From the NCBI GenBank assembly GCA_018267095.1, contig JAFDZC010000017.1, positions 142,431 through 206,430 of the forward strand: 64,000 bases of DNA. Reading direction: 5' to 3'. Within the stretch, counting starts at the first letter, position 1. Each line of letters begins with the position of its first letter. Below the pieces are notes generated by a model. The model searched no databases. It was not told where the DNA came from and saw only the letters and a list, made by a program, of their open reading frames with translations. Origin of the DNA: Bacteroidota bacterium (lineage in GTDB: Bacteria; Bacteroidota; Bacteroidia; Flavobacteriales; Flavobacteriaceae). Made by a program: the position numbers and the translations under genes. Below, piece by piece: positions 41,758 through 47,484 of this stretch.

Positions 41758-41854
41758 TTGTGGATTGATTTAAAAAAAATGTTAAGTCTTTTAGAGTTTG
41801 TAACAAGTTCCGGGTTCATTCGACTTAGTGAGCAAATCATCAAATCAAATCATT

Positions 41855-42271
41855 ATGAAAAAATCAATCATTTATTTAAGTATGGCTTTTGTAGCCTTGA
41901 GCAGTTCAGTTGTGACGGCTTCAAATTTGACAACTACTAATTCAGAAAGACATTTCAAAACCGGAACTCCGCTTTGTGTAGCTATTCAAAAAGGAGAATT
42001 TGACTTTGTGAAAAAGCTCGTTGAATACGGTGCCGATGTCAATGAACGATCAAACGGAATGACACCACTCATGGTAGCGGCTCGCTACAACAAAGTTGAT
42101 ATTATTAAATATTTGCTTGCGCACGGAGCCAATCCAGACATCAAAGACGACAAAGGTTTTAACGCTGCCAAGTATGCAGAGCTTTCGTTGGCCCATGATG
42201 CCTATGAGCTTTTGCGTATAATCGCGAAAACGAAATTTCCACAAAATAAAAACGAAATTTCCATTTTTTAA
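41855..42271 (+). CDS. Secreted ankyrin-repeat protein; C-terminus probably replaced by prophage-end sequence
   Basis: TPLCVA, TPLMVAARYN; last ~18 codons run through the transposase-site-like repeats. Confidence 0.8.
   Translation: MKKSIIYLSMAFVALSSSVVTASNLTTTNSERHFKTGTPLCVAIQKGEFDFVKKLVEYGADVNERSNGMTPLMVAARYNKVDIIKYLLAHGANPDIKDDKGFNAAKYAELSLAHDAYELLRIIAKTKFPQNKNEISIF
42227..42263 (+). repeat. Direct repeats, putative transposase binding sites
   Basis: AAAACGAAATTTCCA at 42227 and 42249 (22-bp period), 14 bp after TG at 42213. Confidence 0.75.
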
Positions 42272-42346
42272 GCATCAACAAGTATAATATTCAATATTAT
42301 TTAAACGCGTCTTAAATGAAATTTAAATGCGTAAAAATAAATGAAA

Positions 42347-42382
42347 AAAAAGCCTGAGAAAGTGTGTTTTTTCAGGCTTTTT
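42347..42382. terminator. Terminator after the formyltransferase-like gene
   Basis: AAAAAGCCTGA...TCAGGCTTTTT. Confidence 0.65.
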
Positions 42383-42423
42383 GTTTGGTTGTTACATAGC
42401 TTTTTTACATCTTTACTATGTAA

Positions 42424-43092
42424 TCAAGTTGATGGAGAGCCGTGTTGCTCAATCATCAGCAAGTCTGGTTTGTATACATCTTTGACATCTGTATTTGGTT
42501 CAAAAGTGCTAAACTCTTTTTTTTGGGGTCGTTTAATAATTACGCCATTGCTTATATCAATAAGCGCGCGCCTCAATAGGTTTAGACCCATATCTTGCAA
42601 AGTATTTTCCCATAGTTTTTTGGCTGCTTTTTTTGGTTCAATTGAATACATGGCGGGATCAATAAAGCAAAAATCTTGATATGCAACATCTCCTCGATCT
42701 ATTCCATCATTCAACCAAAAAACAGTTCCCCCAGTAATTGGATCACGCATACGTATAGCCCACTCAATAGATGAACGACCACGGTGTCTAGGCAACAAGC
42801 TTGGATGATAACCTATCCAACCAAGCCTGCACTTATATCGAGATTTTTTACCTATGTAGTCAAATGAATGTGCAGTTATGCCTAAGTCAACATTGTCCGG
42901 TATTTTATCAGCCGAAAGCGTTCCAGAAGGTATTACTGGAATATTGAATGTGTGTGCTATTTGCGTCAAATATTTATCATCCAAAGGAGCACAAACCCCA
43001 ACAATTTCAACAAATTCAAGCTCATTGCACAGCCTAAACACTTGTTGGCCAAAATACTTTTGGCTAGATATAAAAACTTTTAATTTATTCAT
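42424..43092 (-). CDS. Formyl-THF-dependent formyltransferase/hydrolase-fold protein
   Basis: GYHPSLLPRHRG.SSIEW, GGTVFWLNDGIDRGD. Confidence 0.9.
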   Translation of the reverse strand: MNKLKVFISSQKYFGQQVFRLCNELEFVEIVGVCAPLDDKYLTQIAHTFNIPVIPSGTLSADKIPDNVDLGITAHSFDYIGKKSRYKCRLGWIGYHPSLLPRHRGRSSIEWAIRMRDPITGGTVFWLNDGIDRGDVAYQDFCFIDPAMYSIEPKKAAKKLWENTLQDMGLNLLRRALIDISNGVIIKRPQKKEFSTFEPNTDVKDVYKPDLLMIEQHGSPST

Positions 43093-44205
43093 TGCCTAAA
43101 TATTTAAAACTTTGAACCGCACGTAAATGGCCACCATAACCGCAACCGGTTATACTACCCTTTTTACCGGTCTTTTCAATACTTTGCTTACTTCTGACCT
43201 TATTAGAACCGTAAAGCATGGCCCCTGTTTGTGCCCACTTTTTCGAGTTTCTTAAATAGCCACAAAGTTGTGGGTGTGATGTATGAAAAAAAGTGTGATA
43301 CTTTCTTTGGCACCGACCGTTCCCTTCTAGGTGATATTGCATTACTTCATTTAAAAATGCAGTTCCTACACCTGCGCCTTGCCACTCTGGCATAACAACT
43401 AATCTTGTCGCCCTATATGCAGTGGCCGTAAAGAGTGGGCAAACTGCTAAATGAGCTACAAGTTCACCGTTTACAGTTGCAACAAAATATTCAGCGGCAG
43501 GTGGGTGAGGTAAATCTAAATAGTAATGCTCTTTAAAATACCTCCAATAACTTCCGTTTGTCTTCCAAATGTCGAGTTTAATAGACGGTCTTTTTTGGAC
43601 TTTTTTTTTACTTCACCGGTCCGAGTATCATATACCCAATCCGGTTGCAGCCATTCAACGACATCATAGTGGCAAGAAAGCAAAACTATTTTCTTGCCTT
43701 TTGTTCGCCTCCAAGATTTTGAAAAAGCAGCTGCGCCAATTTGAGCAATTTGCCTGTCTACTACACTGGTAAATTCATCAATCACAACTCGATCAGGTGC
43801 ATTACAAATCAGCCTAGCCAAGCCCGCCCTGTATTGTTCGCCATTCGAAAGCGACTTAAAAGGCCGTAGCCATGCGGGTACATTACCAAGCCCAACGGCA
43901 GAAAGTGAGGCGGTAACTTCATTTAAGCTCATTTGCGGGGCGATATTGTCCACGATAGGTAAAGTGTTGTCCCAATTACTATAAAGGTCGTGTATAGGCA
44001 AATCTTGCCAAATTTGAGCGCCAATTGATGTTTTGCCGGAACCAGATGGGCCAACAATCAGACCGATTTGCCAATTTTCATCTTCAATTGGTAAATCAGC
44101 TTCATGTGTCCATGTGTGACCATTATCGGCGTTAAACAATGATTTTACTTTTTGAGCTCTGAAGGTCTCAAAATTTTTGGTTGTGTGATTGACAACAATT
44201 TTCAT
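43085..44205 (-). CDS. ABC-ATPase + GNAT acyltransferase, fused by a predicted -1 shift at 43606-43600 (~373 aa)
   Basis: GPSGSGKT, LSNGE, VVIDEF, CH; the -1 frame is open from 43600 to 43085 and contains RLVVMPEWQGAGVG. Confidence 0.8.
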
Positions 44206-44333
44206 ACTGATACTACTTTTAAATCCTTAAATCCCATTTCTGATAACTTTTCAAAAACTTTTTTTTGCTCATCCTCGCTACTACACTTCACGATTACAGC
44301 ATGTTGCTCTTTGTAGGTAAAATTTTTACTCAT
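44202..44333 (-). CDS. 43-aa protein not in the ORF track (MSKNFTYKEQHAVIVKCSSEDEQKKVFEKLSEMGFKDLKVVSV)
   Basis: ATG at 44333; ATGA overlap with the ATPase start. Confidence 0.7.
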   Translation of the reverse strand: MSKNFTYKEQHAVIVKCSSEDEQKKVFEKLSEMGFKDLKVVSV

Positions 44334-44339
44334 TCGTTT

Positions 44340-44370
44340 TTTGATTGATGATTATTGATGATTAACTTTG
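44340..44370 (+). promoter_or_regulatory. Bacteroidetes housekeeping promoter, antisense to the late operon
   Basis: TTTG (44340) - 19 nt - TAACTTTG (44363). Confidence 0.6.
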
Positions 44371-44373
44371 CAC

Positions 44374-44516
44374 TTCCTACGATAATTTAAGACACAAAAA
44401 AGCCACCGAATAGAAGACTTATGTCCTCCAACTCGGTGGCTTCGTGCTATAATAAATTACCGTAGGAAAGTATTTATTTTGTTGGAGGACTTTTTTTATA
44501 CTGCCTCCACAGTATT
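44374..44516. ncRNA. Structured leader / antisense RNA candidate
   Basis: Stems 44374-89/44453-68, 44400-09/44433-42, 44423-32/44481-90, and a small hairpin at ~44499-44516. Confidence 0.5.
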
Positions 44517-46152
44517 AGAAAATTTTTCTATAAGCTAAATAATCCGCGTACATATTCAAAGATGTCGTTCCCGCAATTTTGTTAAACAAGTTGTACCAAT
44601 GCATCGCAGTGGATGTTGAAGGAATATTTGTTGTGTGGGTGGCCACTAAAGTATCGTTGATATAAAAGCCAACACTAGTCCCCGCTGAGTTTATTTCAAT
44701 TCGAAGCCGAACCCAACCACTTGCCGAAATTGCCACAGCTGAATTTGTCGTCGTACGAACAGATGTATTTATAGTTACACAACGCCAGTTTGGTGATGCG
44801 CCTAAAACTCCGCCGCCCCAAACGCCACCTTCGTCGTAAATAAAGAATATGCCATTTGTAGTTGAGTTAACATTACCTGCTGTATAAGCTCCAAATATTG
44901 CTGTAAAGCGATCTGTTGAATTTGATAAGCTTTCAATGTTAATATAAACCTCATAGCTGATAGCACCATTGCCAATATAGTATTGAGGTGCGTTGTTCGA
45001 GCCTAATCTAAACACGCCGTTACCCGTTGAAGTTGTACCCGTTGATAATAAAAGAACACCCTCCTGAATAGTTCTGTTAGGAAAAGTACCCGTTGTTCTT
45101 CCGACAGAACCTGTGCCTGATGTTACAACGACCACTCCTAGTGTAGTACCAATCCCAGAGTTATCATTTGTGCCTAAAAAATGTTCAATAAAAAAAACAC
45201 CTTTTCTACGCCATGCCCACATATCCTCTTGGGGTGTAAATCCAATCAAATTTTGTTTTAAATCTAGCGCGGCCTGTTGTAGCGTTGATACTGGCTTTTG
45301 CGTGTCAGAAGTATTATCTACATTACCCAATCCAACCTTTGCTTTTGAAAGGCTACCAATCCAAGAAGGATTATCGTATACTTCTGAAAGTCTCACATAA
45401 AAAGATTGATAGTCCGACTCTACAGCAACTATGTTTCCGATTCTCCCAAAAACAGAGGTCACAGAATCTGAGTTATCCACTTTTGACCAACCGCTCACGG
45501 CTCCTAGTGATAAAATCCAATCACCGGTAGAATAATCGATACCATCTTTTGTAAATCCTGAAGTAACAATAAAATAAACCCCAGCATTTGATACCGTTGG
45601 ATTTGGCAAAGGCAAACCATTGAAAGATACGTATGCCGAACTAACAATCGTTCCGTTGTATGTGCCTCTGAACCTAACGTTTCCGAGTATTTCATCCGGA
45701 AAGTAGGCAGTTGGTATTTTCTGGTCCGCACCTAATGGCGTAACTCCGAGAGCCGCACCAACCAAATCAGCATTAAGCTTCAAATCAAAAGCGGCCATTA
45801 AGTCAGCTTGGTTTTGTAAGTCACCTTCGATTTCTCCCCAATTCTTTGCGCCGCTAATATATTCATCGTAGTCCTGAGAGGTCATGCCGGGATGATCATC
45901 CAACCAAACTTGCCTTGCGTCGCGGCCATCAATACCCCTAAAATACTCATAATACTCTTGAATAGTTCCACCCGGGTTATCAACCTGCCAAAGATCGAAA
46001 GCATTTAACCCATCATTACCGTCTATGCCGTCTCTAAAAGCTGAAACTACAACCGGAGCTACTGGGTTTGTCAAAATGCTTACGCTGTCCGATATCGGGC
46101 AACTAACAGTTACAGTAAATGGCAACGCCGATGTAGTAATTGTTACCTGCAT
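44515..46152 (-). CDS. Tail fibre / receptor-binding protein
   Basis: GIDG repeats at the N-terminus; beta-rich Thr/Gly C-terminal domain; last gene of the tail operon. Confidence 0.7.
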   Translation of the reverse strand: MQVTITTSALPFTVTVSCPISDSVSILTNPVAPVVVSAFRDGIDGNDGLNAFDLWQVDNPGGTIQEYYEYFRGIDGRDARQVWLDDHPGMTSQDYDEYISGAKNWGEIEGDLQNQADLMAAFDLKLNADLVGAALGVTPLGADQKIPTAYFPDEILGNVRFRGTYNGTIVSSAYVSFNGLPLPNPTVSNAGVYFIVTSGFTKDGIDYSTGDWILSLGAVSGWSKVDNSDSVTSVFGRIGNIVAVESDYQSFYVRLSEVYDNPSWIGSLSKAKVGLGNVDNTSDTQKPVSTLQQAALDLKQNLIGFTPQEDMWAWRRKGVFFIEHFLGTNDNSGIGTTLGVVVVTSGTGSVGRTTGTFPNRTIQEGVLLLSTGTTSTGNGVFRLGSNNAPQYYIGNGAISYEVYINIESLSNSTDRFTAIFGAYTAGNVNSTTNGIFFIYDEGGVWGGGVLGASPNWRCVTINTSVRTTTNSAVAISASGWVRLRIEINSAGTSVGFYINDTLVATHTTNIPSTSTAMHWYNLFNKIAGTTSLNMYADYLAYRKIF

Positions 46153-46460
46153 ACTTCAAACTCAGCTTTAAAAATGATCGATTTAATATCTTCTAATTTT
46201 ATCTCAGCATAATAAGTTCCTGAATCCAATCCCTGACCTGATGGGTCTATCCACCATGTCATTACTTCATTTGAAATGCTTAAATCAGTACTAGGAATTT
46301 CGAACCTTGTATTTTTTGCGGGAGAATTCCACACGTCCAATTGATATGTACCACTCCAAGGCTCAGAAGCCGTAAAAACAATAGGTCTTCGCTCAGACTT
46401 CCCAACCGCCTTAATTTTTAAAAGCGTCGCAATTGATGGGTCAATAATAACTGTATTCAT
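46143..46460 (-). CDS. Phage tail-associated hypothetical protein
   Basis: Overlapping neighbours in the tail operon. Confidence 0.55.
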   Translation of the reverse strand: MNTVIIDPSIATLLKIKAVGKSERRPIVFTASEPWSGTYQLDVWNSPAKNTRFEIPSTDLSISNEVMTWWIDPSGQGLDSGTYYAEIKLEDIKSIIFKAEFEVCR

Positions 46461-46987
46461 CGTGATCCTATTTGATAAGTGGCTAACCATTTTACGCTTG
46501 GGGCAGTCGTTAACTTTCGAATAACTGCTACATCTTTGTAATCTGAATAATGAAAAGGTAGGCCATCAATAGTTCCGCCTGCAACCTGATAATTAATTCC
46601 GAAAGGGTAACCATTATCGAGCAAATAAACCATAAATGTAGAATTTGCAGGGAACTCGCCGTTAATGGTAAATATCTGTGTTGTTCCAGCGACAATATCG
46701 TTTTCAATAACGATAAATTTATTTTCATCGCCAGGCTGTGCTATATAAACACCTGTAGAAACAATTGAAGATAAAAGTATTCTCTTTTCTACTCGTGCGT
46801 TTGAACTTTCAATATCGTCACGCAGTTTGTTTACAAAATCACGCAAAACTTCAAACTCAGTAGCCGTTAAAAAATACTTCGGGTCTTTGCCCACCATATA
46901 GGCCAACTTTTCGAGCGAATCTTCTTTAGAAAGTATTTGTAAATACTTTGGATCTAGACCGGGTATTGATGGTGTCGTAATTGCCAT
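46457..46987 (-). CDS. Phage tail-associated hypothetical protein
   Basis: Position in the tail operon. Confidence 0.55.
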   Translation of the reverse strand: MAITTPSIPGLDPKYLQILSKEDSLEKLAYMVGKDPKYFLTATEFEVLRDFVNKLRDDIESSNARVEKRILLSSIVSTGVYIAQPGDENKFIVIENDIVAGTTQIFTINGEFPANSTFMVYLLDNGYPFGINYQVAGGTIDGLPFHYSDYKDVAVIRKLTTAPSVKWLATYQIGSR

Positions 46988-46989
46988 GA

Positions 46990-47484
46990 TTATAAAATAG
47001 TAGGTGAAGTTAATTCCTGAATTTTTTTATAAAACTCATATAAAAACAAGGTTTTATTTGAGTTTGTTACAGTTACAATAGTTCCGTCTGTTGCTAGAAA
47101 ATCAACATCTCCAGTCGAACCAGTATATAGTCCAATGGCAAAATACCTAAGTCTAGCCGCCTCATGCATTGGGAACTGTTTTGAGGCATAAACAAATGTG
47201 GCAGAATTAATGTCATTGATTTTATTCTGTTCAACAATCTGAGTTTGTTCGGCCAAATACTCCGCCTCAAATTCAGCCATCTCACCGGTTGACCTTTCCA
47301 CAAGCACACCGCCAACAATTTTTAAAGGACAAACCCCGAATTGATATTCTGGCACTAAATTTTCAGCCAAAATAAGAGGGTTATCTTCTTCACCGAGTGC
47401 TTGAAGCTCTTGAAGACTTTTAGCCCAACCGTGCCACTGTATAAATGGCTTTTCTGAAATTTCTACAGCTTTTAAATATCTCAT
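46990..47484 (-). CDS. Putative tail-fibre assembly protein
   Basis: Follows the first fibre-like gene. Confidence 0.5.
   Translation of the reverse strand: MRYLKAVEISEKPFIQWHGWAKSLQELQALGEEDNPLILAENLVPEYQFGVCPLKIVGGVLVERSTGEMAEFEAEYLAEQTQIVEQNKINDINSATFVYASKQFPMHEAARLRYFAIGLYTGSTGDVDFLATDGTIVTVTNSNKTLFLYEFYKKIQELTSPTIL

Follow-up and report, generated by a model that had tools for sequence, protein, structure and literature searches.

Evidence for −1 recoding at a conserved poly-A tract that would join an ATPase and a GNAT acyltransferase in a Bacteroidota prophage

The window analysed here is a stretch of 64,000 nucleotides (nt) from a Bacteroidota genome (assembly GCA_018267095.1, contig JAFDZC010000017.1). 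On its minus strand, an ATPase gene runs into a GNAT acyltransferase frame at a run of nine adenines (A9), where the sequence by inspection reads ...ACC GGT GAA GTA AAA AAA AAG TCC AAA AAA GAC... The features that make up this junction are as follows.

43600 to 43609, minus strand: slippery tract GTA AAA AAA AAG, with the A9 run at 43609–43601 and the G at 43600; assigned as the site of −1 recoding.
43516 to 44205, minus strand: zero-frame open reading frame (ORF) of 229 amino acids (aa) from the ATG at 44205, consisting of an ATPase domain of ~202 aa and a 27-aa out-of-frame tail; assigned as the short product.
43613 to 43615, minus strand: TGA that closes the −1 frame, just 5′ of the A run.
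43085 to 43600, minus strand: coding part of the −1 frame, 171 codons plus TAA, holding a complete GNAT acyltransferase domain; assigned as the C-terminal half of a 373-aa long product.
43085 to 43393, minus strand: ATG-initiated ORF as called by gene callers, 102 aa; a truncated call that begins inside GNAT motif A, after strand 4.

An earlier note on this DNA had proposed that −1 slippage at the A run fuses the ATPase to the GNAT domain, and the sequence elements it described are present. The run contains the heptamer A_AAA_AAG at 43606–43600, in phase with the ATPase ORF (44205–43516), whose TAG stop (43518–43516) lies 27 codons past the slip site. Because the −1 frame is closed by the TGA at 43615–43613, a shift is restricted to 97 nt, from 43612 to 43516. 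Downstream of this TGA, the −1 frame is open for 175 sense codons up to the TAA at 43087–43085. It reads SKKKVQKRPSIKLDIWKTNGSYWRYFKEHYYL...RLVVMPEWQGAG..., that is, SKKKVQKRPSIKLDIWKTNGSYWRYFKEHYYLDLPHPPAAEYF...RLVVMPEWQGAGVG..., and adds 69 codons (43600–43394) upstream of the 102-aa ORF call, as the note had said. Conceptual translation across the shift gives a fusion of 202 + 171 = 373 aa with the junction ...GEVKKK/VQKRPSIK... and the predicted junction peptide VKKKVQKRPSIKLD; the two product sizes proposed earlier, 229 aa and 373 aa, are correct as conceptual translations. An exact look-up in a protein collection did not find the 373-aa fusion and returned only the two separate pieces, including the 102-aa product.

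Compared with profile databases, the fusion covers a known phage protein family almost end to end: residues 1–372 align with positions 1–351 of the 357-position profile PHROG 11143 (phrog_11143; expectation value (E) 7e-145). Pfam assigns ABC_tran to the first half and Acetyltransf_1 and Acetyltransf_7 to fusion residues 223–300, with the GNAT matches beginning ~50 residues before the ATG of the 102-aa call. In the family alignment, the ATPase motifs (Walker A GPSGSGKT, signature LSNGE, Walker B VVIDEF, H-loop CHYD) coincide with invariant columns, and the invariant residues are G48, G52, S54, G57, K58, L119, S120, G122, D143, E144 and H178. The GNAT half carries the acyl-CoA motif (R/Q-x-x-G-x-G/A; WQGAGVG in the window) together with invariant R, V, P and G columns.

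An AlphaFold2 model of the 171-aa −1-frame segment shows a complete GNAT fold, with a predicted local distance difference test score (pLDDT) of 84.8. Strands 1–4 of this model are residues 10–69, and the ATG of the 102-aa ORF is residue 70. The 69 upstream codons hold strands 1–4, so the ATG-initiated ORF lacks them; judged from the model, these codons appear to be structurally required for the GNAT fold. A Foldseek search with the GNAT-only model retrieved GNAT neighbours at a template-modelling score of ~0.6, of generic types such as SpeG, RimI and Naa60, and gave no hint of the substrate. An AlphaFold model of the in-frame relative L040 (70% identical; pLDDT 85.1) shows an ABC nucleotide-binding fold connected to the GNAT domain by a short linker at the position of the slip site. 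Foldseek matches of the full-length model were dominated by ABC transporters, and PDB sequence searches with family profiles returned generic ABC and GNAT matches only, with no clue to the substrate.

These data bear on the alternative that the locus holds two separate genes and that the GNAT protein is made from a non-canonical start or by re-initiation. Gene callers do give two ORFs here, and some phage records annotate an overlapping second gene. In the ORF list of the window, however, no ATG, GTG or TTG occurs in the −1 frame 5′ of the ATG at 43393, that is, before domain residue 70, and no start codon is conserved in the −1 frame of the relatives described below. The ATG-initiated ORF lacks strands 1–4, and homologues are single polypeptides. 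We consider two separate genes very unlikely.

Neither does the break appear to be a sequencing error. Homopolymers are error-prone on some platforms, and with a true tract of A10 the gene would be in frame. Against this, a Logan contig of run SRR24111718, a separate assembly, is 100% identical to the window across 3690 bp, the A9 run included; ~40 independent assemblies share the −1 state, with two tract types; and Sanger-era Streptococcus prophage genomes carry an analogous break. An assembly or sequencing error is therefore the least credible of the explanations that we weighed, with a probability close to nil.

The A9 run by itself is not unusual in this host genome, which contains 109 A/T runs of at least 9 nt (longest 15), about half of them within stop-free frames of more than 100 codons. 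Chance does not account for the position of the run, which falls on a frame break separating two domains of a known protein family, or for the retention of this break in relatives. Most phage members of the family are in-frame, single-ORF homologues, including those of Porphyromonas, Burkholderia, Pseudomonas, Gordonia, Leptospira and Aeromonas phages and of Planctomycetota prophages. The distant in-frame homologues have an Arg-rich linker with no homopolymer and no lysines at the junction. The earlier note had suggested aligning homologues for a slippery motif at the junction, and the close homologues proved to be out of frame, with A9G, A10 or A11 at the same linker. These relatives are 58–89% identical to the window at the amino-acid level and comprise 16 Bacteroidota genome loci (Flavobacterium spp., Bizionia, Capnocytophaga leadbetteri and a Chitinophagaceae metagenome-assembled genome (MAG)) and ~25 IMG/VR contigs. 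In every full-length locus among them, the ATPase is in frame 0 and the GNAT domain in frame −1, with the break at query residues ~199–204. The sub-clade of the window has A9G and the junction GTAAAAAAAAAGTCC; a larger sister clade has A10 and the junction TTAAAAAAAAAATTG or ...GCG. In most relatives the −1 frame opens just 3–18 nt 5′ of the run. A census of the tracts gave the following states, with 41 of 44 in the −1 state and 35 of the 41 extracted junctions distinct.

A10, frame −1: 26 loci.
A9, frame −1: 14 loci, the window included.
A11, frame −1: 1 locus, by substitution.
In frame: 2 loci, L039 (A11, 2097–2107) and L040 (A10, 2095–2104).
A6, +1: 1 locus, L061.

Both halves of the gene show signs of purifying selection. 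For the GNAT part read in the −1 frame, the ratio of nonsynonymous to synonymous substitution rates (dN/dS) is 0.02–0.09 where dS could be estimated, with dS ranging from 1.5 to saturation, and the ATPase part shows a similar pattern. No further stop interrupts the 171 codons, in the window or in its relatives. A pseudogene is ruled out by these dN/dS values and by the lack of further disruptions downstream.

The tract itself also appears to be constrained at the nucleotide level, with its length kept beyond coding needs. Across 32 distinct genes, AAG makes up ~40% of the codons at nine other conserved Lys columns, none of which is free of AAG. By contrast, AAG is absent from the first two Lys codons of the tract, which always follow GTA or TTA.

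The strongest argument for selection of the −1 arrangement is that the out-of-frame state has not been displaced over long divergence. In the family tree, the poly-A loci with a −1 break fill a clade with 100% support that also contains the in-frame Porphyromonas phage and phiE255. Within it, the in-frame L039 is nested among A10 loci in the −1 state, with branch lengths of ~0.02. This placement points to a frame-restoring gain of one A, which would then occur in the DNA, or else to an artefact of the metagenome consensus. Persistence of a state that a single-base gain could repair argues for a function of the ATPase-only product or of a reduced dose of the long product.

A rival reading is DNA-level phase variation, with a contingency tract switching the GNAT fusion on (A10/A11) or off (A9/A10) by replication slippage. 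Homopolymers of 9–11 nt are hypermutable; two relatives are in frame through one extra A, a third has A6, and L039 is otherwise almost the same as its out-of-frame sisters. However, contingency loci show mixed tract lengths among close kin, whereas here 41 of 44 tracts are in one −1 state across lineages with saturated synonymous sites, and tract length is nearly invariant within each clade. Phase variation is thus improbable.

We give similarly little weight to a fixed frameshift that is merely tolerated, be it through a trickle of background slippage (a non-adaptive 'rescue') or because the GNAT half is unused. Poly-A tracts rescue indels in other bacteria through polymerase infidelity, and, as the in-frame homologues show, not every member of the family needs the short product. 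Yet purifying selection acts strongly on the GNAT half as read in the −1 frame. The one-A reversion occurs, as in L039, and the −1 state has still not been replaced in two deep sub-clades. In addition, a second clade of the family has the same break, with a different signal in its Streptococcus and Lactococcus phages, and this points to selection for the arrangement.

This second clade is formed by phages of Lactobacillales. The −1 break is found at the same domain boundary in all Streptococcus (315.4, phiNIH1.1, the Javan series and MismyG), Lactococcus (P335) and Oenococcus phage members; the loci used were those of Javan141 (L003, 3040–3140), S. pyogenes phage 315.4 (L110), MismyG (L107), Lactococcus P335 (L108) and Oenococcus Vinitor-27 (L004). 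In the Streptococcus and Lactococcus phages, patterns of synonymous change place the shift at CAG GUU UUU CAA (GGUUUUUC). A 9-bp stem (UUCCCCCAC/GUGGGGGAA) begins ~4 nt 3′ of this site, with a z-score of −3.3 to −4.1 in three of four phages and of −1.4 in 315.4, and MismyG has one compensatory change in the stem from C-G to U-A. Site and stem together look like a ribosomal-frameshift cassette, and the records annotate it as two genes. The Oenococcus phage junction has no stable structure (z +1.3). In Enterococcus phage 9184 (L109, MT939242.1, ~locus 930–990), the in-phase sequence is GCA AAA AAG (A_AAA_AAG within a 6-A run) and the GNAT domain is again in the −1 frame; the downstream ORF of this phage carries a 'DNA polymerase' label in its record, which looks wrong.

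A distant viral contig, L104 (IMGVR_UViG_3300037067_011628, 2053–2061; 40%/32% identity), has an A9G run and groups with the Lactobacillales phages with 97% support. It reads GAT AAA AAA AAA GAA, and a −1-frame TAA abuts the run, so that the shift in this contig must happen within the A9 tract. Judged by these comparisons, the same linker would be recoded in at least two distant clades through different signals. Three distant homologues, from a deltaproteobacterial MAG (L034), a Pirellulales MAG (L035) and a viral contig (L106), have +1-type breaks at varied positions with no homopolymer of 6 nt or longer at the break. These are probably errors or pseudogenes.

Taken together, the comparisons make it probable, with good confidence on our part, that the ATPase and GNAT ORFs are one gene with programmed −1 recoding at the A9G tract. 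The fusion of the two domains by −1 recoding, as put forward in the earlier note, is supported by the 41 loci with a shared break and tract and by selection on both halves. In this scheme, the gene would be kept out of frame at the inter-domain linker in the Bacteroidota lineage. Standard decoding would yield the 229-aa ATPase-only protein, while −1 recoding within the A9G tract (43609–43600) would yield the 373-aa ATPase–GNAT enzyme. We propose RNA polymerase slippage as the main route, in which the transcript gains one A (A9 to A10); −1 ribosomal frameshifting at the in-phase A_AAA_AAG would contribute as well, in second place. We infer slippage itself, a useful rate of it, the process that dominates and any role of the short product.

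We lean towards slippage of RNA polymerase because a tract length of 9–10 is conserved and no stimulatory RNA structure is present. A homopolymeric A/T run of ~9 or more lies at the frame junction in all 41 loci with a −1 break, the window included. This length of 9–10 exceeds what a heptamer needs and equals the length of the RNA polymerase hybrid. Slippage is efficient at nine A/T (Atkins et al. 2016, PMC5009743). In the majority clade, A10 comes without an in-phase AAG, which leaves the heptamer A_AAA_AAA, reported to be far less slippery than A_AAA_AAG (PMC5009743). Downstream structure was not conserved: for 34 junctions, RNAalifold returned −0.2 kcal/mol, and the 40–78 nt downstream of the site in the window had z ~0 against shuffled controls. 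An upstream element resembling a Shine–Dalgarno (SD) sequence was not conserved among the relatives either. Stimulatory elements are common in −1 frameshift cassettes, though not obligatory.

In a purely ribosomal version of the recoding, −1 frameshifting would take place on A_AAA_AAG in faithful A9 transcripts, as in dnaX or the IS3 family. The heptamer is in phase, and Aragorn detected only tRNA-Lys(UUU), with two genes, as lysine tRNA among 36 tRNAs in 19 contigs. Having tRNA-Lys(UUU) as the sole lysine tRNA is the condition that makes A_AAA_AAG shifty in Escherichia coli (PMC5009743). Enterococcus phage 9184, with just A6G at the same junction, and the Streptococcus and Lactococcus phages, with a slippery site and a stem-loop, also speak for ribosomal shifting. 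Three observations count against it for the window: in the larger sister clade T or G comes after A10, so that the heptamer there is A_AAA_AAA, the three As past the heptamer are conserved, and neither downstream structure nor an upstream SD-like element is conserved. We therefore regard a purely ribosomal shift as possible and tentative. If recoding is accepted and the share of each process is asked for, a transcription-dominated process is somewhat favoured, a ribosome-dominated one is a lesser possibility, and comparable or mixed contributions appear unlikely.

Several observations weigh against programmed recoding at the tract, or against one or other of its routes. L039 and L040 are in frame and L061 is +1, so the tract does vary at the DNA level. 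Many of the IMG/VR contigs and genome loci are close kin, and the 41 loci are therefore not independent. About 50 A/T runs of at least 9 nt are tolerated inside long ORFs of the same genome, which suggests that A9 slippage in this host has either low efficiency or little cost; if polymerase slippage at A9 is efficient there, many ordinary genes would give frameshifted transcripts. For the ribosomal route, a shift with neither a conserved structure nor an SD-like element would probably be inefficient.

The gene lies at the end of a myovirus-type prophage, after the genes for tail sheath, tape measure, baseplate and tail fibre; terminase and portal genes are found at 60.5–64 kb of the window. 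It is flanked on the same strand by two overlapping genes.

44202 to 44333, minus strand: small ORF of 43 aa whose stop overlaps the ATPase start (ATGA); phrog_28816, E 1e-7; adaptor-like.
42424 to 43092, minus strand: formyltransferase-like gene of 222 aa; Pfam Formyl_trans_N, E 2e-16; phrog_9240, E 3e-43.

The order of small ORF, enzyme and formyltransferase is the same in Porphyromonas phages and in Burkholderia phage phiE255 (gp28–gp30), and formyltransferase and ParB or small-adaptor neighbours recur around family members. The protein of phrog_28816 is labelled 'acr candidate' in Porphyromonas phage records, and its phiE255 counterpart is gp28. The ParB-like proteins found ahead of the enzyme gene in Streptococcus and Lactococcus phages can be aligned with the 43-aa ORF over their C-terminal ~40 aa, with low identity (19–26%). 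This alignment suggests a detachable adaptor domain and not an anti-CRISPR protein. On the other side, the ATG of the formyltransferase gene overlaps the GNAT stop by 8 nt, an overlap with the enzyme gene that is also seen in Porphyromonas phages and phiE255. Since its start overlaps this stop, translation of the formyltransferase probably depends on the recoded frame, to which it is probably translationally coupled.

An ankyrin-repeat ORF on the plus strand (41828–42271) abuts the prophage end beside the formyltransferase gene. It matches phrog_9262 and phrog_9049 and may be phage cargo instead of a host gene. A megablast search of 42000–47000 against phage records gave no match, and no homologue was found in 60 genomes of the genus and order.

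A more speculative scheme is one that we hold only tentatively. Obligatory −1 recoding may have arisen several times within the family, always at the ATPase/GNAT linker and by different means, the proposed reason being that the enzyme works best as an asymmetric ABC dimer of one ATPase-only and one ATPase–GNAT subunit. Recoding would then set the stoichiometry of the two and, by coupling, the dose of the formyltransferase. The purpose that the earlier note had suggested, limiting a toxic enzyme, finds no support. In many phages the protein comes from one uninterrupted ORF, so expression at full level is tolerated there, and these homologues argue that such a limit is not a general necessity.

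For annotation, the consequence is that the gene is split in records into an "ABC transporter ATP-binding protein" and a truncated "hypothetical" or GNAT ORF, here as in S. pyogenes 315.4, phiNIH1.1 and Lactococcus P335. Annotating the recoding would correct dozens to hundreds of entries. The family is widespread and predicted to acylate DNA bases, and a construct expressing a gene from these lineages would come out without its catalytic domain if the slippery site is neither preserved nor circumvented. Relatives handle one and the same domain boundary with a long poly-A tract, with the heptamer alone or with a heptamer-like site and a stem-loop, and would thereby also offer a natural series for comparing transcriptional and ribosomal slippage. 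In Bacteroidota, recoding has been little studied.

The predicted function follows from known relatives. ABC-ATPase–GNAT proteins are part of a predicted DNA-base acylation system (Iyer, Zhang, Burroughs and Aravind 2013, as cited in the excerpted text of Iyer et al. 2021, PMC7824862). Tenacibaculum phage pT24, which that text names as a family member, is among the matches of the window protein. As in the system of the Aravind group, the ABC ATPase is N-terminal to the GNAT domain, and a formyltransferase and a ParB or small-adaptor gene are neighbours. Unlike the system as described, the domains lie here in different frames, and the excerpted text of PMC7824862 mentions no recoding. ParB-like proteins, which are upstream neighbours in many family members, activate another class of phage DNA-base modifying enzymes (PMC13229309). 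On these grounds, late-acting DNA-base acylation is our best guess at the function.

A parallel in gene position is Mom of phage Mu, a GNAT-fold protein for adenine modification with a small overlapping com gene. As with mom, a GNAT-fold enzyme gene sits at the tail-fibre end of a prophage and is preceded by a small overlapping ORF; in phiE255, a Bcepmuvirus, the module likewise comes after the tail-fibre genes. The two have no detectable sequence relation, and the locus described here differs from mom in its ATPase domain and its formyltransferase partner.

A close parallel in recoding is dnaX (tau/gamma), where a poly-A slippery site lets one gene encode both a short and a long protein. The E. 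coli gene uses −1 ribosomal frameshifting at A_AAA_AAG and that of Thermus thermophilus transcriptional slippage at A9 (PMC5009743), while dnaX of Chlorobi has an A10 run and needs slippage for its long product (PMC5009743; PMC3711429). The window gene shares the heptamer with E. coli dnaX, the tract length with those of Thermus and Chlorobi, and with the latter a long product that would need the shift. It differs from dnaX in belonging to another protein family and in having its zero-frame stop 27 codons past the site instead of directly after it, and from the E. coli gene in having no SD or stem-loop stimulator.

In the type III secretion genes spa13 and mxiE of Shigella, an A-rich run within an ORF gives a C-terminal extension, and in spa13 the extension made by slippage overlaps the start of the next gene, spa32, affecting downstream expression (PMC5009743). 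A similar overlap exists here between the GNAT stop and the formyltransferase start. Unlike in Shigella, the extension would be a whole catalytic domain, and slippage is read from the sequence.

Phage tail assembly chaperones G/GT provide a further parallel, being made by a conserved −1 frameshift that gives two products with a shared N-terminus in a fixed ratio and that is conserved by position more than by sequence. A conserved phage −1 frameshift and a shared N-terminus would be common to both systems. The chaperones are structural and usually use a 7-nt heptamer; here, an enzyme's catalytic domain would be added and the tract is 9–10 nt long. Recoding in the ABC-ATPase–GNAT family is described neither in the reviews by Atkins et al. 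2016 (PMC5009743) and Antonov et al. 2013 nor in the literature covered by our full-text searches. Poly-A slippage that gives a short and a long product is already known, and the ABC-ATPase–GNAT family would add a new case to it, with good comparative support.

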